This document shows positions 8,896-58,342 of a stretch of 64,000 nt of DNA, piece by piece. The translations under genes and the position numbers were made by a program. How positions within the stretch are numbered: position 1 is the first letter of the stretch; each line of letters opens with the position of its first letter. Source of the stretch: Massalongia carnosa. Taxonomy: Eukaryota. The stretch spans positions 1,550,001-1,614,000 of the forward strand of contig OZ287081.1 of assembly GCA_965645245.1 (NCBI GenBank), read 5' to 3'. A model generated the notes under the pieces. That model made no database searches, had not been told where the DNA came from, and saw only the letters and a program-made list of their open reading frames with translations.

Positions 8896-11800
8896 ATGGA
8901 CTTAGGCAGTTGCAAAGAGAAGGCTGTGGTGATCATTGATGATGACGACCTAGCGCCTCCTAGCAAGCAAGGTAAGCCTTTAATATACAAATTCCTCACA
9001 TATGCCGTGCTCGTCTTCTACCGAAAGTTTGCCTTCACTTTGTTCGACTATCGACGCTTGCAGCTTCCACGATAACGCCATTGTAGATACCCAGGTTATG
9101 AAAATGCAGATGAAACCAAAAACCTGAAAACTTCACAAGTTAACCTTTTCACTGCAGGGAGACGGCCTCTTCGAAGATCAGCTCAACTTTCTTTTAGCTG
9201 CCTAGCCAAGTCCAAAGCCTCCTCTATCCAAGCTACACACAGACAACCCAGCCGCTCATCAATTGTGCAAGCGGTTCCAAGAGCATCAATTTCGACGCTA
9301 TCGTTGAACCAGCCAGGATCTCTGGCTGGCTCTCACTTACAATATACAGCTGAGTCACCGTCTCGCTCTAAGAAAAATATATACTCAAAACGGCACAAAA
9401 GCAGGCACTTGGATTCTAGCACGAATGCAAAAAAAGGACAGAATGGTCTAAACTCCAGTTCTACGATTTCAGCACATCCACCGCAATCCAGCTCGAGCAA
9501 CTCATCCGCACATGAAGTTACGGCTCCACCAAACCTTTCGCGTTTTAATCCTAAGAAACAGTGTATACCCATATGTCTTTCCGAAGATGTTGTTGATAAA
9601 TCTTTTTACTGCCAGAATTACACGAGCGACCAAGATTTTCAACATCAGCCTATGCTAGAACCACACGATGAAAGCTCAAAATCCGCAGTAAGAGCTTATC
9701 CCTTGGGAAGAAAGACGAATCGATTAGAACCCATGAGAAATCTAAACATCTCATCGCCGTTGGTAGGCTTAGACCACTTTACTGTTAAGGGTATCAGAAT
9801 CAATAGACAGACAAACCTAGAGCTTCTGAACGGCAATTTCATAAGGGTTATTAATATCATCCAAGACTCGGCAACTTCAGAGGTGAAACTTCAAGGCTGG
9901 GTCTTTCACCGTACCGATGTAATGGACCATATGTTTGAACTTCAAAGGAACGAAATTTGCTGGATCCTACACATTGACGAAAATGATATCCTTATACCTA
10001 AAGTACAAGGCATGGAATTAGTAGCGGTCTCGGAAGTCCTCAGGAGAAGACATATTCGAATGACAAATCGACCATTTCCAGAGTTGAGTTGTTTACAAGA
10101 CCCTTTGCAAAAACCCCAAACAATGATCGACCAGGGTGTCCTCATTTGTAGGTATAAGTATGTATGTTCATACCAAGATGCTAAGGCATTCAAACGGAAT
10201 GCCTGGTGTGAGAGATCATTACAGCGATTGCAAGCAGAGGAGTGTGATCTTTTATTCAGCTCGCCGGATGACCAGCTTCGTCAAATCTGGAGAGGAGACA
10301 CAGTCAAGGGTGGGGCCTGTAGAAACTCTCAGGCAGGTGAGAAAAAATACTTGCAGCAAGGAACTGTGGGTTCCAGCACCATCCAAAGTCCTCAGCACGA
10401 GAAAAAACCTAGCGAGAACTTCCAGTTATCTCATGCTCATAAGCATCAGCAGAGTTCCAAGAGGCATGGAAGCGCACCATTCGTAATATTCGAGTCAGGA
10501 GCAGGATCTAATAATGACGTACAAGAAGTAGACGTCCAGTCGTTCTTAGGTCGACCTTTAGGGACGAGCCAAACTCAAGCATCAGCTCAGAATCTTGGTT
10601 ATATTCCCGCCCCCGGTGCCAACCGACAGTTGTCAAATTATTCTAATATGCTAGCTTTTCAGCCAAAAAAGCGTAAATCCGGATTTGAACCAAATACAGG
10701 TATTCTTGTTACGAAGGATTCGCCAGGAGCGAAGAGGCAAAAACACTGCTCAGGATCAAGCAACATGATGAAGACGGCTCCTGTTGACCTAACCGATGAT
10801 GAGCTAAACCTGCGGTCACAGTTATCCTCCATGCTCAAAGAATCTAGATTAGCTCATTCTCAAAAGTTCGGTCCATTCCATCAACGTTCAGCGCGTCACA
10901 TTTCACCGGAAGTGGTTAAGGTTCGTGCCCAGATAGATAGTTTTTCCAGCCTAGGCATTATTCGAAGGGAGTACGAGGGCCTAATAACCTCCACTTATCT
11001 TGCGACACCCAATAGCGAAGCACAGCGAGATTCACCATTCATAGCTTTACCCCAGCAAGACTCTTTGAGACAAGGGTCGGTCATTGAGTTATCGCCAGAC
11101 TATCCAACTACCAAAGGTCGCTGCCAACAGTCTCCAGAGCATGAGATAACCTCCATGTGCTCGCAGTCTGTAATCGTAATAGGAGAACCTGCAAGGGTCT
11201 CTAAAGTAGATCGGGCTGCGATTCGGCGACGCCTTGATACATCATATTCTGAGGATATACGCCGTGGGGCACAGTGTTTACCTTTTAAGTATGTCGAGCC
11301 AAGATCCAATGTTCGGAGGCTCATATCAGACGCACACACACGGGAATGTGCTGAAGTGTTGTCCAGCGATATGAGCATGCGTCCATACGACATTTCCTCA
11401 GTACCTAATCGTAAACTATCTGCGAAGCCAGTTGCTTCAGCTGCTAAATATCATCTACTGTCCAGGCCTACATGTCAAAATCAGCGCAGCTTGCCCGTAC
11501 CCGCATCAAATCAACAGCAGTATACCTTCGGAGACTGTTTTTGCGGTGCCGGTGGAACATCACGAGGGGCTGTTGCGGCTGGTCTGCGCGTAGACTGGGG
11601 GTTTGATTACAATGTTGCAGCATGCGAATCTTATGCATTGAACTTCACCCAGGCGAATACCTACAATATCTCAGCCGATCGCTTCTCAAGCCTAGTAAAT
11701 GAAGACCACAAGGTGGACATCTGCCATCTGTCGCCTCCTTGCCAATTTTTCTCCCCCGCGCACACGGTTGAAGGCAAAGATGATGATAAGAATACCGCAT

Positions 11801-12473
11801 CTCTCTTTGCAATTTCACCACTTCTTGAAAAAAGCAAGCCTAGAGTCGCTACTCTAGAGCAGACAGCCGGTCTAATGCAGCGTCACCATATGTATTTCAG
11901 TGCTGCGATACGGATGTTCACAAGCTTAGGATTTAGTATTCGTTGGAGAGTGGTCAAGTGCCCAGATTATGGTGTGCCCCAGAGTAGAAACCGCCTGGTC
12001 TTGATTGCATCATGGTAAGCTTAGTAAAAGCTTACATTTATTATCAGCTACAAACTAACAAATCTCCAAGCCCAGGCGAAGCTCTCCCGGCCTTCCCAAA
12101 ACCTACTCACGCCAAAGATCCATCTTCACATCATGACTTCAAGTCTTGGGTAACTATCAATCAAGCTATAGCTAATATTCCCTCCGGCTGGCCAGGTCAC
12201 GACGTCGACTCCGCCCGCAGGATCGACGGCCCACCTGGACACGGTGATAGATTGTCAAGATGCATCACCACTTCAGGGGGGGGAAATATCCACCCTAGTG
12301 GCAAGCGCGCATACACTTTACGCGAACTTGCATGTCTACAGTCTTTTCCCTTAGAGCATGAATTCGGGCTCAAAGGAGTCAAAAGCCAGATTGGAAATGC
12401 GGTGCCCCCTGTTCTGGCGAGGCTAATATTGGACGAGGTGAGAAAATCCCTGATAAAGGCAGATGGACTTTGA
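8896..12473 (+). CDS. rid: RID/Masc1/DmtA-type C5 cytosine methyltransferase (RIP-defective homologue)
   Basis: Motif I TFGDCFCGAGG, IV HLSPPCQFFS, VI LEQT (EQT in place of ENV is typical of the RID/Masc1 family), VIII PQSRNR, IX RELACLQSFP, X IGNAVPP. Intron 12015-12070 joins LIASC-PGE. Probable first exon 8896-8971 with intron 8972-9094. Confidence 0.9.
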
Positions 12474-51920: not shown

Positions 51921-53365
51921 CACGCGGGTGAGAAAAAAATGACAACGACGTGGGGGCCGTTTACCCCAAATTTTGCATGCATTCCCCCTTTTCAATTACG
52001 ATTATACAGTGTTTACACAAGAAAAATTCAATGTAATAACCAGTTATTGCACCTTCACCATCTAGTACTGCCTGCAGTCTATCAGGCATTGATCGCACCC
52101 GTTTATTGATGAAATCCTGAGAAACACGAGTCCAAACCTCCAAAATCAACTCCTTTAGAGTAGCATCATCCTAGTGTGGATATTTACGAAGATGTTGCTT
52201 AATCGGTAGCCAGCAGTTCTCGATTGGAGACAAATCAGGAGAAGACGAACAGTTAAAATAATGATTCAAATGATTGGTTTCCTTCCATGTCTTGACTGCA
52301 TTTCGGGTTCTACCAGTGCCATGTCCGGAGTCCCCATCTTCTTCTAAAACGAAGTCGTCACCTCGATCAAGCCAAGACTTGACGAAGGGATTGAGAATAG
52401 AGTCGATGTAGACCTGATAAGTCATCTTTCCATTGCTATTTCCAGGAACATCGTAAAAGACGAGCTCAGACTTGAAATTATATCCAGCTGCAGCCCAACA
52501 ATGCATTCGTTTTCGATCTTTTCCAGGAGGGGGATCACGATGCTGAATACAATCCCATCTATATCGAGTACCAGGCTGTCTTATGATTCGTAGTTGACCT
52601 TCGGGTCCATATCCAAAATGCACTTCGTCGCTGAATCGAACACGACTCCAGTCTTCGGGTTTGGGGTATTTTTTCAGCATAACACGAGCGAACTCCATTC
52701 TGCGTTCCATTGGAACGTCTTTCAGTCATTCTTTCACACATACGAGGCATTTTTCATAGTCTAATGCGGCTTGAAGAATGCGATGCATAGTACGACCCAC
52801 TACCTCAGCGTTGACCTCGAGAGCAATTTGATCCCAAGTATAATGCTTGCCTTTGAGCATTAAATCATCGTCTTGTAGAATATGATCAGCTTCTCGCACC
52901 TGCTAGCCTGTGATCTTTGATTTTCGACCCCGAGTTTCATTTAGTTCAGTAATATTGTGACGAGTTCGTGTTGGAATACTCGCTTAGCCCCATTAGTTCT
53001 AGCTCAGCCCTGCAGGCTGCCATGACTACTACACGTATAAGCAGTCACCTCCGTAGTAATTTCAACATTATGCCGTCAACTGTTTATTTAACAGTTCGTG
53101 AAGAAGATCCTGCTTAATCATTCTGTATCTAGCTCTTTCCTCAACGTTAAATTCTCTGAAAATATCACGAACATCATGCGAAAGTCATTTCGCAACAAGA
53201 AACTGATGAGCTCCCTGTACCTTGGCCTTTTGAGCGTATCATAGTGAGATTTCGGGGCATTTTATATAGGAATAATGGTGAAAAGGTGGATGAGAACGAA
53301 ATAAAGGGAGAAATTTTGGTGGGGTAAACGCCCCCCACGTTGTCATTTTTTTTGTCACCCGCGTG
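51921..53365 (-). mobile_element. Tc1/IS630-like DNA transposon (DD38E), inactivated
   Basis: About 50-bp imperfect TIRs starting CACGCGGGTG. Transposase remnant (~53260-52040) with FSDEVHF, EEDGDSGH, SPDLSPIENCW, several stops and frameshifts. Flanked by GTTGG on both sides. Confidence 0.92.
52969..53093 (+). mobile_element. Solo LTR (125 bp) nested in the Tc1-like transposase
   Basis: TGTT...AACA ends with 5-bp TSD GTTCG (52964-52968 and 53094-53098). Removing it rejoins transposase SSRT-RHN. Internal TATAAG. Confidence 0.8.
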
Positions 53366-53479: not shown

Positions 53480-53778
53480 CTATGACCCTTATCGGTGCCG
53501 TTACCTTCGCTTGCGCTGGGGGGGCTTTTAATTGGATGAATTGATTTGAATGCTTGAATTTGATTGGGCATGGGAACGACACAGGTCAGCCCGGGCAGGC
53601 CTAGGCACGTGACTCGGGGTCGGTGCTGAGGTGAGAACCTCATCTTCTAGGCCCGAGGCGTCTGCTGACGCTCAACGATCCGATAGATGATGCCCGACGG
53701 CAGTGCCCGACGGCGATGATCTAGATGGAGGTGCCCGGCGGCGCTCCGGATCGATGCCCTGGTTGACCTGTACGCCCA
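53480..53778. repeat. Split direct repeat B2 (299 bp)
   Basis: Identical by eye to 54010-54308. Confidence 0.95.
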
Positions 53779-53832
53779 TCGCTCACTTAAGGTGGCTTCT
53801 AACTAGCTATGAATCTCGGGTGGCCGAGGGTG

Positions 53833-54009
53833 GGGAAAAGCAGCAAGCACTGACAGCGAGGTAGGGGCACCGAGACAACGTGGGGTCGACGACGAGTCAG
53901 TGAGATGGATGAGGCCGAGTGAGAAGAAGTGGATGAGGAAAGAATTTTCAGAGGGTGATTCTTAATTTACTTTGACTCAGGGGCCTCACGTGACATAGAA
54001 CCATTTCAT
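53833..54009. repeat. Split direct repeat A2 (177 bp)
   Basis: Matches 58166-58342 with one difference (T54005 vs C58338). Confidence 0.95.
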
Positions 54010-54308
54010 CTATGACCCTTATCGGTGCCGTTACCTTCGCTTGCGCTGGGGGGGCTTTTAATTGGATGAATTGATTTGAATGCTTGAATTTGATTGGGCA
54101 TGGGAACGACACAGGTCAGCCCGGGCAGGCCTAGGCACGTGACTCGGGGTCGGTGCTGAGGTGAGAACCTCATCTTCTAGGCCCGAGGCGTCTGCTGACG
54201 CTCAACGATCCGATAGATGATGCCCGACGGCAGTGCCCGACGGCGATGATCTAGATGGAGGTGCCCGGCGGCGCTCCGGATCGATGCCCTGGTTGACCTG
54301 TACGCCCA
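54010..54308. repeat. Split direct repeat B1 (299 bp), contains the YR stop codon
   Basis: Identical by eye to 53480-53778. Confidence 0.95.
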
Positions 54309-55414
54309 ATGGAATGCCCAATTGAGTAGGGGTAGGAGTTTGTAGGATTCGTCTCGGCGACGACAGCACGTGGGACTGCTAGAGGGATGCCTTTTTGAAA
54401 ACTGAGGTTCAAATTGAATAGTGAGGCCTGGGACGTCTGAAAGTATAGCTGAAACGCGTTTGATGACCATCTTCCGAGTCTCTGAATACTCTCATCCAGC
54501 ATCCCGTGGTCGGCGGCGTGTTGTGCTGCTCCTTTTCTGAAGCTGTGTCCCGAGTATGCCGAGTCGTTGATGCCGACGGCTATCAGTCTCTTTTTCAGGG
54601 ATGCTATGACGGAGGCTCTGGTGAATGCGGTGCCGAGACGAAAAAGCGGGGATGTAGATGGCTGAGGATCATTTCTGAAAAGACGCCGTAGTGCTGTCAC
54701 GGGGCAAGTGCTCTCATTGGTCGCTGCCAGCACTATCTGAACTCCTGAGTGATTTGTGTCTGTTTTGCTTCTTTTGAGACGTAATGTCGCGTATTGATCG
54801 TTCTCGGCGAATGAGATGTCACCTCGTGTAGGTTTCAATCTCTGAAAAGATGTCTTCTTACGATCAGCGACAGTGTAGGTGATTTCCCCGAGTCTGAGGA
54901 ACCCTGCCCATGCAACTTTGAATGTCGCGTCGATGTTGAGGTCTTCGGCCGAATGAGCGGGAATACTGGTGATTTTTGTCAGTAATTCTTTTGAAATGGG
55001 TAGGCGTCTTCTTTTTGTCTGAGAAAAGATCCTTTTTCCCCCTTTCAGCATCAATTGAAGTCTCGGCCCCTCGAATGGGGTGAGGCCGTATCCTCGGTCT
55101 ACATGGTATGATCTGAGGCCGGCGAGGTAGCTCGCTGCCGTCTCTGGTTTTATCTTTCCCTGCTTGGGTGTGCCGCCCCCGTATAGTCGACCGGCTAGCC
55201 ATTCCTCGAGGGACTCGGTTGTTGCAGGCCACGACGTGCGTCCCGTCGTCGCGCAGAATGCCTCGTATGAGTCGATCGCCGTCCCGTACCCTTTTCTCGT
55301 GTCCGCCGAGTGTCCGTGCCAGACGAGACGTTTTACCAGGGCTGACCCTGGTGTGGAGGATAGGTAGGTGGAGGGAGGTTCATCGAATTGTATGGGTTCT
55401 GCCAATGAGGGCAA
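54251..55414 (-). CDS. Tyrosine recombinase of the Ngaro-type element (no N-terminal ATG)
   Basis: Catalytic set FLRLGE (R), RSKTD (K), GHSFRKG (HxxR), GRW, FQLY (Y). N-terminal binding domain YLAGLRSYH. Confidence 0.95.
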   Translation of the reverse strand: MPSLAEPIQFDEPPSTYLSSTPGSALVKRLVWHGHSADTRKGYGTAIDSYEAFCATTGRTSWPATTESLEEWLAGRLYGGGTPKQGKIKPETAASYLAGLRSYHVDRGYGLTPFEGPRLQLMLKGGKRIFSQTKRRRLPISKELLTKITSIPAHSAEDLNIDATFKVAWAGFLRLGEITYTVADRKKTSFQRLKPTRGDISFAENDQYATLRLKRSKTDTNHSGVQIVLAATNESTCPVTALRRLFRNDPQPSTSPLFRLGTAFTRASVIASLKKRLIAVGINDSAYSGHSFRKGAAQHAADHGMLDESIQRLGRWSSNAFQLYFQTSQASLFNLNLSFQKGIPLAVPRAVVAETNPTNSYPYSIGHSIGRTGQPGHRSGAPPGTSI

Positions 55415-57036
55415 AAGTTAGCCAATCTTTCATCATCAAAACGTGACAGGGCATCTGCTAGTCCATTGGAAGTGCCACTGATCCATTGACAACGTAGTAC
55501 GATGTCCCACTTTGCAGCTATGGACAGTATTTCTCGTAGAGGCGCGTTGGCCGGTCCCTTGAGGGTTAGATTCGTGAATCCTGTGTATGCTGTGTTGCTG
55601 TCGGTAAAGACAAGGATCTGTCGATGTCGCCATGTCGGCGCCCATTTCTGAAGGATTAGAAGGATAGCTTCGACTTCTCGGACGTTTATGCTCGGTGATC
55701 CTTCCTGATTGAGGACTAGGACTCGGGCCCTACATGCGTTTTTTTGATTCACGAGCTCGTTGTCTTGTTGAAAATAGCCTCCGAGACCCGTGAGGCATGC
55801 ATCCGTATGCACCTTGATCGTGTCTCGTGTTGACGTCTCGAAGAAGACAATACCGTTGAAGTCCACTAGAAGTTTGTTCCACCAGATGAGATCCTGTCTG
55901 ACCCATGTGGGAATTCTTCTTTTGACCCGACGATGACTGCCCGAGGGAAATGAGGCTATAAAATTCCAGAATAATCGTAAGAAGACTCGGCCCAATTTGA
56001 CTGCCTGTGCGCAGAAGCTTAGGAAGCCCGCTATTGACTGCATGTCGCCGAGGCTGATTGTCGTCTCGTTTAGTGCCTTTGTAGTGATGATTCTCGCTTT
56101 TTCCAGCTTGTCCGCTGGCAGACGAATAAGACTGTTGATGGTGTCGACCTCGAGTCCGAAGACTGTCGCTGTCGTTCCCTCGGCGTCTTTTGAGTCGTTT
56201 CTCGGGATGCCAAGAATGTCGGTGAGAATGTTGTAGGCTTTTGTTTCTTGGTGCAATCGTTCTGACGATGTCTCGGATGGGAAAATTGCAACGAAGTCGT
56301 CTAGATAGTGATGTAATCTCCATTGTAGAAAGGATTCCAAAATCCAATGAAAGCCTTCCGCAAAAATATTGAAGATGAACGGGGCCGTCGACAGTCCGAA
56401 CGAAAGGCATGTCTCGGTGTAGAATTCGTCATTCCATCCGAAACCCAGAAGCCATTGATGATGAGGTGCGACGGGAACGTTTCGAAAGGCGTCTTTGACG
56501 TCTCTTTTCACTATGACAGCACCTTTGCCCGCTGACAGAATCAATTGAATAATGTCGTCGAGTCTGGCGTATTGTAATTTGGATGCCTCTTCTGGAATGT
56601 TGTCGTTGACTGATGTTTGATTGGGATGAGACAGATGATGAATGCGTCGCCATCCTCCGTCATGTTTCGGGACCAAGCCGAGGGGGGAGGCCACAAATGG
56701 CTGACTCGGGGCGGCTATTCGTCTGACTCGGCCCTTCCTGAGGTCCTCTTGGAGCTTATTCTCGATCGTTTCCGGGTCCTCATTCGCTGATGTCAGATTT
56801 TTTTCGATCCGAAGGATGTCTGTGGGGCCTTCGTATCCGATTTGTACTCCGAAACGAAGGATCATGGGCAGATGGACTCGGAGGGGGCCCGGATACTCTT
56901 GAAGTAGAGTTGCCCATGCGGACGGTACGAGGGGAGATGGGCTGTCTTTCAAACGCTGACGAGATGCGTCTACGAGTTGAAACGAAGGGATTGTATTTGG
57001 TCTGATTGGTGCAGGTAAGCAGGGATGGGACGTCAT
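55333..57036 (-). CDS. Reverse transcriptase + RNase H of the Ngaro-type element
   Basis: RT motifs VPKHDGGWRRIHHLS, KRDVKDAFR, LSFGLSTAP, HYLDDF. RNase H motifs TDAC, EVEA, FTDS, ADALSR. Confidence 0.96.
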   Translation of the reverse strand: MTSHPCLPAPIRPNTIPSFQLVDASRQRLKDSPSPLVPSAWATLLQEYPGPLRVHLPMILRFGVQIGYEGPTDILRIEKNLTSANEDPETIENKLQEDLRKGRVRRIAAPSQPFVASPLGLVPKHDGGWRRIHHLSHPNQTSVNDNIPEEASKLQYARLDDIIQLILSAGKGAVIVKRDVKDAFRNVPVAPHHQWLLGFGWNDEFYTETCLSFGLSTAPFIFNIFAEGFHWILESFLQWRLHHYLDDFVAIFPSETSSERLHQETKAYNILTDILGIPRNDSKDAEGTTATVFGLEVDTINSLIRLPADKLEKARIITTKALNETTISLGDMQSIAGFLSFCAQAVKLGRVFLRLFWNFIASFPSGSHRRVKRRIPTWVRQDLIWWNKLLVDFNGIVFFETSTRDTIKVHTDACLTGLGGYFQQDNELVNQKNACRARVLVLNQEGSPSINVREVEAILLILQKWAPTWRHRQILVFTDSNTAYTGFTNLTLKGPANAPLREILSIAAKWDIVLRCQWISGTSNGLADALSRFDDERLANFCPHWQNPYNSMNLPPPTYPPHQGQPW

Positions 57037-57081
57037 GAATTCAGCTATTGAAGCTATTCTACTGCCTCCTGCACCAACCCC

Positions 57082-58095
57082 CTATTTCTTCGTTGGGCAT
57101 GTCTTCTGGCCATGCCCAGCCGCGCCGCACGATTTACATTTGTGCTGTCGGTAGCACGACGGCCAGGTGCAGGTGCCGCTGTTGTACTTGTCGCAGATTT
57201 CCCCCGCTGCCTTCTCGGCCCTATCGGCCCTGTCTCCTCTCGGGGTCGGTCGCCGGGACGGCGGGGATCGTGAGCGGCGACGGCGTAGGACTGTGAGGGG
57301 GGTGCAGAATCGAGCTTGGAATTCGTCGGGCATTTTCCATTGGGATGCGTCGGATGGCTGAGACGCGATGATGTGAGTGTGGGTTTCGATGGCGAGGGGG
57401 AGGACTGCTTCCTGCCACTCGTACACCTTGGCCAGCGTGAGGATTTTTCCGTGGAATGCCGACATGGTGGCGTGAAGCTGTTGACTCGATTTCCCGAAAA
57501 GACTGACCATGATCGAGGTGTAGTTGATGAAGCTCTCGGTCCAGACGTCATGAACTGTCTTTCCGAAATCTTTGTAGGTCCCGGATGCCTTTCTCAACCT
57601 CAAGGCGCCGTCTTCGATGCCGATGCGGTCCTGATCCTTGTAGGACTCGTATTGCATGCCGTGCATGTGTCGGAGGCGGGAGAGGTTGATGGCTTTGAAT
57701 TTATTTGAAAAGATCTTGATGATCTCGTCCTGTGGTAGGCCCGCGAAACGGGGTGCTATACTTCTTACTTCGAGAGGGATCTCACCTAGGTCCTCGTCGT
57801 CATCGCCGACGACACGACTCGGCTTGCCAGCAGGAATGACGGCCGCTATTCGGGCGTCAGATTCTCGGCGCATGCAGTCGATTTCTAGCTGCATTTTTTC
57901 CACCTCCTTCTCGGCGACCAATGCCTTGGACTCGGCAATTCTGGCCTCAGCCTCGGCCGCCTTCGCTTCTGCCTCGGCTTTCTTCTTTTGTAGGGCGAAG
58001 ATTTGATTGGACTGGGCCTGCGTCAATCCGACAATCTCCTGGGAGTCGGGGACTATGTCGTCCATCGGGGTGCTTTGGGAACGGGTGTTCGTCAT
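57082..58095 (-). CDS. Gag-like ORF1 of the Ngaro-type element (coiled coil + C-terminal zinc fingers)
   Basis: ATG at 58095, coiled coil KKAEAEAKAAEAEAR, C-terminal CDKYNSGTCTWPSCYRQHKCKSCGAAGHGQKTC (CCCH + CCHC). Confidence 0.9.
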   Translation of the reverse strand: MTNTRSQSTPMDDIVPDSQEIVGLTQAQSNQIFALQKKKAEAEAKAAEAEARIAESKALVAEKEVEKMQLEIDCMRRESDARIAAVIPAGKPSRVVGDDDEDLGEIPLEVRSIAPRFAGLPQDEIIKIFSNKFKAINLSRLRHMHGMQYESYKDQDRIGIEDGALRLRKASGTYKDFGKTVHDVWTESFINYTSIMVSLFGKSSQQLHATMSAFHGKILTLAKVYEWQEAVLPLAIETHTHIIASQPSDASQWKMPDEFQARFCTPLTVLRRRRSRSPPSRRPTPRGDRADRAEKAAGEICDKYNSGTCTWPSCYRQHKCKSCGAAGHGQKTCPTKK

Positions 58096-58165
58096 TGGGA
58101 AAAAGCACCGACAGCGAGGTAGGGGCACCGAGGACAACGTGAGGTCGACGACGAGTCAGTGAGAT

Positions 58166-58342
58166 GGGAAAAGCAGCAAGCACTGACAGCGAGGTAGGGG
58201 CACCGAGACAACGTGGGGTCGACGACGAGTCAGTGAGATGGATGAGGCCGAGTGAGAAGAAGTGGATGAGGAAAGAATTTTCAGAGGGTGATTCTTAATT
58301 TACTTTGACTCAGGGGCCTCACGTGACATAGAACCATCTCAT
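58166..58342. repeat. Split direct repeat A1 (177 bp), 5' end of the element
   Basis: Matches 53833-54009. Confidence 0.95.

Follow-up and report, generated by a model that had tools for sequence, protein, structure and literature searches.

A recently active Ngaro-type retrotransposon of an ascomycete with a probable gag-recombinase splice and gag-stop readthrough

Introduction

The element described here occupies positions 53480-58342, minus strand, of a 64,000-nucleotide stretch of the Massalongia carnosa genome (contig OZ287081.1; hereafter the window), and its nearest described counterparts are the fungal Ngaro retrotransposons. Ngaro groups 1-4 of Muszewska et al. (2013) (PMC3783388) have the same repeats and gene order, a tyrosine recombinase (YR) in a shifted overlapping frame, and no methylase, protease or DDE integrase found. 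The present element differs from them in its ascomycete host and its dozens of near-identical copies, and neither a splice from gag to YR nor an in-frame gag stop is described in the accessible text of that survey. The Ngaro of Cafeteria burkhardae (PMC8547959) shares the layout and the open reading frames (ORFs), and its solo AB repeats were ascribed to recombination; it differs in its protist host and in variants without ORF1, and the accessible text makes no mention of splicing, readthrough or frameshifting.

As to Ascomycota, the 2013 survey recorded one Ngaro remnant, in Neosartorya fischeri (PMC3783388), and a 2026 paper places Ngaro mostly in Mucoromycota and Basidiomycota (PMC13465315). 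A complete family was nevertheless reported from Zymoseptoria tritici in 2015 (PMC4502367). That family, RYN, to which we liken the present element by its description, is likewise a complete Ngaro element in a filamentous ascomycete, but it is one family of 23 kb, or 0.06% of the genome, whereas the present genome contained two or more young families of over 50 loci each. The rarity in Ascomycota put forward in the preliminary description of this locus was thus true of the 2013 survey but is overstated today, given the Z. tritici family, a Talaromyces stipitatus protein (EED11627) 43% identical over 96% of RT (reverse transcriptase)/RNase H, and the second family in this genome; similarly, the lineage, which had been called possibly poorly described, is under-described but not rare. 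Since both published and in-genome ascomycete families exist, the ascomycete host is not the surprise. Altogether 307 relatives passed E 1e-10. One close RT relative, P0055 (TMD69347.1), is filed under a Chloroflexi metagenome-assembled genome on a contig of less than 5 kb and probably represents fungal DNA that entered the bin.

Split direct repeats and a YR are also common to PAT-like and VIPER-like elements (PMC4157794, PMC6681497). VIPER, known from kinetoplastids, has the order gag, YR, RT/RNase H (PMC6681497). PAT elements usually carry a methylase, which the present element lacks, but a methylase-less PAT lineage exists and structure alone is no proof of Ngaro (PMC4157794). DIRS-1 of Dictyostelium is also a YR retroelement, for which a circle-and-junction model with junction-like integration was given and tested and whose proteins act in trans; it differs from the present element by its inverted repeats, internal complementary region and methylase (PMC7192593). 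Defining features of YR retrotransposons were also taken from PMC9210276 and PMC4905642.

The present element is a member neither of the retroviruses nor of the Tca2 type, and its spliced product would be a Gag-recombinase fusion, but its proposed expression resembles theirs. In gammaretroviruses gag, a stop codon and pol lie in one frame, and a spliced RNA serves the 3' gene, as for retroviral env. Candida Tca2 works alike, with gag, stop and pol in one frame (PMC2194720).

Compared with these systems, the element displayed all five testable Ngaro features, in agreement with the type assigned to it in the preliminary description. Its layout is A1-gag-RT/RNase H-YR-B1-A2-spacer-B2, with the internal repeats 3' of YR and with the gene order gag-like ORF, RT/RNase H, YR rather than that of VIPER. 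No inverted repeat pair was found within 53480-58342, and hence neither DIRS1-like inverted terminal repeats nor an internal complementary region; none of 32 pol proteins matched a Dam-family methylase of the PAT-like kind; and no protease, DDE integrase, env or long terminal repeat pair was found in the element. Based on these and the following sequence comparisons, we consider the element, with a probability of about 0.75, to be a Ngaro-type retrotransposon that is autonomous, was recently active and expresses its genes in a retrovirus-like manner. Its interest lies in the well-supported splice and the probable readthrough, and in full, tail-less, solo and spliced copies occurring as a natural series, the kind of host being already known.

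Results

Three copies of the element's family (family 1) in the genome, L057, L073 and L090, were shown by comparison of genomic copies to lack exactly positions 57785-55399 (2387 nt). They have unrelated flanks, lie at separate sites and belong to two subfamilies, and in L057 and L090 an open frame of 485 amino acids (aa), Gag(1-103)-YR, is present. Such exact intron loss in genomic copies shows passage through an RNA intermediate. The putative intron joins gag codon 104 in frame to a recombinase frame without a start of its own: the first Met of YR lies inside the Cre-like N-terminal domain, so that a start from elsewhere is needed. L059 reuses this donor and L070/L078 this acceptor, the latter through a single event subsequently duplicated, the joint of which recurs in contigs of sequencing run X2.

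To this were added relatives from a metagenome scan, in which 425 were confirmed and 78 loci kept; together with the window they formed 45 clusters. The cluster counts for donor, acceptor and frames include the window element. A donor at the same phase within 7 codons was found in 19 of 24 testable clusters, as compared with 6 of 560 control windows, and in the two other phases in only 1/24 and 0/24. A branch point followed by YAG was present in 34 of 37 clusters (controls, 48/728), and YR was in the splice-compatible frame in 36 of 37. Because the splice signals sit in coding sequence, codon choice was also tested. In the acceptor region Ala was encoded by GCT in 25/25 cases (background 22%) and Gln by CAG in 25/25 (42%), and in the donor region Gly by GGT in 14/15 (21%) and Glu by GAG in 13/15 (47%). 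When joined in silico, 20 of 25 loci remained open through the end of the YR match. Taken together, these data make it very probable that gag codon 104 is spliced to the recombinase.

Some results weigh against this splice. The in silico product ended early in 5 of the 25 loci (in three of these the script chose an upstream AG, a further acceptor lying downstream), and one of the 20 passes is on a scrambled contig. The 2387-nt joint was absent from the 15 of 38 contig joints listed from four sequencing runs, and no fully spliced copy was seen, by length, among 36 elements of the second family described below. YR might instead be produced by a -1 frameshift from pol or by internal initiation, with the spliced copies as by-products of cryptic splicing, an explanation that we regard as quite improbable. 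The position of YR in the -1 frame of pol in 36/37 clusters is also what frameshifting requires, and cryptic splicing does occur, as judged from small losses in L035/L060, L050 and L059 and a loss starting with GT in L181. Both donor and acceptor, however, are conserved at the nucleotide level beyond the need of the protein and in one compatible phase (slippery sites were not searched for), and initiation at Met123 would forfeit the Cre-like N-terminal domain.

The small intron-like losses (L035, L060, L050, L059 and L181) measure 49, 54, 71 and ~55 nt. The frame-breaking 49-nt loss is common to L035 and L060, two full copies from different sites, which suggests that a defective copy was moved in trans. 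Deletions in L082/L093 (345 nt), L080 and L087 were also considered as splicing and rejected, not being splice-like. Introns have been noted in some fungal YR elements, and the priority of the present splice is accordingly uncertain. No published report of a gag-YR splice or of gag-stop readthrough in Ngaro was found in a literature survey that did not cover Goodwin and Poulter 2004 and Poulter and Butler 2015.

Between gag and pol, the two frames were the same in 26 of 29 clusters (p 5e-10), and exactly one stop separated them in 25 of 29. In 16 of 25 clusters no Met precedes the first conserved Trp of pol. The gag stop is followed by CAA in 9 of 25 clusters, as compared with 0/20 pol stops and 0/26 YR stops. 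In family 2, the gag stop reads TGA-CTA, and the first pol Met is at 198, in all fetched copies. Stop contexts of the CAR-YYA, CUA and CGG kinds favour readthrough. It is therefore likely, as judged from frame and context, that Gag-Pol is made by occasional readthrough of the gag stop.

Other observations speak against readthrough: the pol of the window has a Met at residue 15, so that an internal start is possible; its gag-stop context is G-rich and not CAA; the similar Tca2 junction directed no readthrough in yeast (PMC2194720); and the hairpin predicted just 3' of the gag stop is not general, z <= -2 being reached in 7 of 25 clusters and in 5 of 49 controls. A general hairpin at this place among relatives is weakly supported at best. 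Accordingly, we weighed the possibility that the splice is real while translation of pol begins at a Met of its own (residue 15 in the window's element), by way of reinitiation, a promoter at the junction or a different spliced RNA. A Met stands before the conserved Trp in 9/25 clusters, the window included, and in Tca2 a minor junction promoter was found, the flanks of the stop directing no readthrough in yeast (PMC2194720). The 16 clusters without a usable Met, the first pol Met at 198 in family 2, the kept frame and the CAA confined to gag stops (0/46 of the other stops) nevertheless render a start at the own Met of pol unlikely, and we retain readthrough as the probable route to Gag-Pol.

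The genes and repeats of the element are summarized in Table 1. As had been claimed, the gag, RT/RNase H and YR frames are all open with complete catalytic residues, B1 and B2 are identical over their whole length, and A1 and A2 differ at 1 base. The B1/A2 junction (..CATAG/ATGA.., the slash marking the joint) is an internal copy of the end-to-end junction of the element. The A repeat contains, within 20 bp (A1 58306-58325 and the matching part of A2), CACGTG and TGAGTCA, which we take to be bHLH and Gcn4/AP-1 type sites and which may be there by chance.

Table 1. Positions of features of the element in the window
Feature	Position	Strand	Remarks
Repeat A1, 177 bp	58166..58342	-	5' end of element; 66/75 copies start ATGAGA
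Partial tandem duplication of A, ~63 bp	58103..58165	-	in leader; shorter in subfamily b, absent in subfamily c
ORF1, gag-like, 337 aa	57082..58095	-	start ATG 58095, stop TAG
Putative splice donor GTGAGA	57780..57785	-	phase 1, gag codon 104
Putative intron, 2387 nt, GT-AG	55399..57785	-	contains rest of gag and nearly all RT/RNase H
Single TAG between gag and pol	57082..57084	-	one frame; predicted readthrough product 920-aa Gag-Pol
Predicted hairpin	57004..57079	-	just 3' of gag stop; z -3.45
pol frame (RT and RNase H), 582 aa	55333..57081	-	no methylase domain
Putative branch point GCTAAC and acceptor CAG	55399..55422	-	within pol codons A554-Q561
YR frame, 388 aa	55417..54251	-	open
Putative exon 2, Cre-like tyrosine recombinase	54251..55398	-	first own Met of frame is residue 123
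Repeat B1, 299 bp	54010..54308	-	overlaps YR stop
Repeat A2, 177 bp	53833..54009	-	
Spacer, 54 bp	53779..53832	-	exact 20-mer at 21 genome places
Repeat B2, 299 bp	53480..53778	-	3' end of element; TCATAG terminates 74/75 copies

ORF1 consists of a charged N-terminal part, a helical core and a CCCH finger followed by a CCHC knuckle, the latter weakly matching Pfam zf-CCHC_6. The predicted structure of the core (57085-57828, minus strand) had a pLDDT (predicted local distance difference test) of 86.6; Foldseek with this model returned nothing at E <= 0.001, and in a further structural comparison the best Z was 6.0, the matches being generic helical bundles. That ORF1 has a new fold was considered and not adopted, as the absence of a clear structural match does not show it. 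The RT retains D195 and YLDD 259-262 (Pfam RVT_1, E 1.6e-12), and the RNase H retains D427, E469, D494 and D543, with only 35 aa beyond its last motif. RT look-alikes in the atlas were from molluscs, basidiomycetes and cnidarians, a lead only. In YR, the catalytic R175, K218, H291, R294, W317 and Y325 were invariant in 29 of 29 aligned YRs. As a single sequence YR gave Pfam matches below the cut-off and chance matches only in the PDB search; its profile succeeded, matching Cre including the N-terminal domain (best E 1.6e-10), and all 17 matches were Cre or the Cre-derived Tre.

To determine the extent of family 1, exact end motifs were counted in 52 Mb (B end 88 times, A start 99 times, spacer 21 times). 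Of 97 loci fetched, 10 that were nested, rearranged or overlapping were set aside, and the remaining 87 comprised 12 full copies, 53 without the tail (tail-less, A-ORFs-B), 10 consisting of a solo A-spacer-B of ~530 bp and 12 partial copies. With L029, one of the loci set aside, the solos number eleven. The four-repeat form is hence a minority of family-1 copies, a point missed in the preliminary description, as were the splice and the in-frame gag stop. All three frames passed the open test in 7 of the 12 full and 15 of the 53 tail-less copies. Five locus pairs with both flanks in common are segmental duplicates; L070/L078 and L082/L093 are duplicates of this kind and do not speak for self-propagation of tail-less copies.

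The 61 copies of at least 3.9 kb fell into subfamily a (27 copies, 11 full, mean difference 0.20%), subfamily b (32 copies, none full, 0.77%) and subfamily c (2 copies), with star-like relationships within a and b. As 21 subfamily-a copies differ from the window copy by no more than 5 bases, the youth and recent activity supposed from the window alone were confirmed by the genome-wide count of many near-identical loci and 12 full copies. No CpA bias was detected in family 1, the private C-to-T changes of subfamily b being distributed over CpA (51), CpC (43), CpG (49) and CpT (28) near availability, and repeat-induced point mutation (RIP) was thus ruled out for this family. Elsewhere in the window, a C5 cytosine methylase domain (PF00145, E 5.5e-26) ends a long frame at 9076-12018 (plus strand), possibly of RID/Masc1-like build, and is notable because family 1 lacks a RIP signature.

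The repeat layout could, in principle, be an assembly artefact of a collapsed repeat, since contigs from the unique flanks enter the element by 27-29 letters only, below the 31-letter bridging rule. Such an artefact is extremely improbable, given 12 full copies (11 besides the window) with unrelated flanks and the same four-repeat layout, a 290-nt contig of run X4 from another study that matches B2-spacer-A2-B1 with zero differences, and the same layout in metagenomic loci L120, L145, L161, L163, L164 and L174 and in 30 family-2 copies.

Family 2 came to light in an RT search in which 144 of 696 candidates were scored; at least 38 places had one identical score, with 48% identity, and further families were present. 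The family-2 element is young and 4939 bp long, with A of 363 bp and B of 148 bp, and of 15 copies fetched, 13 had the tail and 2 lacked it. A search for a strict GTRAG donor found none in family 2; a donor reading GTATGG in phase 1, with an acceptor in frame, was spotted afterwards by eye and is therefore weaker evidence. On contigs C1-C19, to which the counts are limited because both end-motif lists are complete there, end motifs gave 30 full, 6 tail-less, 18 solo and 3 other copies. Each end of the family-2 element reads CTAG and its internal junction CTAG-CTAG, and the chemistry of its ends may therefore differ. Its fetched loci are L176-L189 and L194, beside which L190-L193 and L195 are listed; further older families exist.

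These counts bear on the origin of the incomplete forms. In family 1, whose B exceeds A in length, tail-less and solo copies numbered 53 and 11; in family 2, whose A exceeds B, they numbered 6 and 18 (p 7e-7; with duplicates removed from family 1, 50:9 and p 4e-7). Ratios that follow the longer repeat fit recombination or template switching in that repeat, not resolution by YR. Full copies made up 0/32 of the older subfamily b versus 11/27 of subfamily a (p 5e-5), and 5 of 10 solos carried both b-type alleles; that b has no full copies while solos have its alleles favours later collapse. On balance, loss of the tail or body through later recombination between like repeats is the somewhat better supported origin.

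Of the 21 youngest copies, 10 have the tail-less form already. This tells against such collapse, which would need very fast recombination, and is in favour of tail-less and solo forms being born as such, either when YR resolves a circle with two junctions into a large circle and a small one, each of which integrates, or when RT switches template within a repeat. All three spliced copies are, moreover, tail-less, solo L029 sits cleanly at a junction-like site within another copy, and template switching would likewise favour the longer repeat. Resolution, in contrast, predicts similar numbers of both products, against the ratios above, and permuted elements, of which there were 0 among 42 four-repeat copies (12 plus 30 of family 2, with L043 ambiguous); the subfamily-b data count against either route. 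Origin at birth is thus possible but the less probable explanation, later recombination being preferred. At L043:459-754, an A repeat with 29 nt of spacer is joined to the truncated A of an element of subfamily b; either a nested solo or permutation combined with a deletion could account for this. Self-propagation of tail-less copies was unsupported, as the near-identical sister pairs L022/L023 and L088/L089 are inverted neighbours on one contig, for which gene conversion suffices.

The target W-A-R/A, which resembles the junction ..ATAG/A.., was found at 51 of 75 insertions against a background of 2.2%. The lack of a target-site duplication, noted at the outset, was upheld by the clean insertion of solo L029 into the A repeat of L018, the only insertion whose empty site is known; no empty-site joint across the whole element was among the joints listed from contigs of four sequencing runs. 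L009/L059 and L022/L044 lie on different contigs with the left flank in common and the right flank not, as expected from ectopic recombination between copies. Contig C7 has the same copies, identically flanked, at its two ends (L046/L054, L047/L053), through subtelomeric duplication or an assembly effect.

In the surroundings of the element, a neighbouring Chs5 protein had its named best matches in Pezizomycotina, mostly lichen-forming (~56-69% identity, for matches whose alignment spans most of the protein), except one entry labelled Quercus suber, and one of the sequencing runs that contain the sequence is a lichen metagenome, which accords with the ascomycete host deduced beforehand and makes it a filamentous one. 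A Tc1/mariner-type relic (51925-53363), with imperfect inverted ends of 44 nt (77%) and a fragment of DDE_3 (E 5.6e-10), ends ~115 bp from the Ngaro element; numerous contigs break off at 52969 and 53094, which suggests that another short repeat is inserted in it.

Discussion

Based on these results, the following course is proposed. Unspliced RNA would yield Gag and, by occasional readthrough of the gag stop, Gag-Pol, while spliced RNA would yield the 485-aa Gag(1-103)-YR, in which gag supplies the start codon and the N-terminal DNA-binding domain of YR is kept. The Gag part may well bring the recombinase to the particle, for which the odds seem to us about even. The RNA is then reverse-transcribed, as the exact intron loss shows, and the internal B1/A2 junction would restore the ends of a circle, following the model in the literature. 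YR would insert this presumed circle without target-site duplication at junction-like W-A-R/A sites, where the site bias itself is observed. After insertion, recombination between like repeats would convert the element into A-ORFs-B (B1 with B2) or into the solo A-spacer-B (A1 with A2).

Whether the plan extends to Ngaro elements at large is evenly poised: they may share an undescribed scheme in which Gag-Pol arises by readthrough and a conserved gag/pol intron gives a Gag-recombinase fusion that is carried into the particle. The same proposal includes a large, active ascomycete-associated clade, in which the four-repeat form would be a short-lived master, soon decaying into copies that lack the tail and do not replicate.

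How the overlapping and often start-less YR is produced and how split-repeat elements replicate are questions unanswered in the literature surveyed, where the experiments concern DIRS-1. In the present family each step is testable, since the splice sites are placed to the nucleotide, the stop codon and target motif are known, and copies that were spliced or collapsed in nature exist. It also represents, with family 2, two retrotransposon bursts in a filamentous ascomycete without a RIP signature, the RIP contexts having been counted in family 1. For annotation, taking the first ATG as the start of a YR gene model costs it a domain. The repeats that serve to identify Ngaro are missing from most copies, which may explain its apparent absence from ascomycetes.

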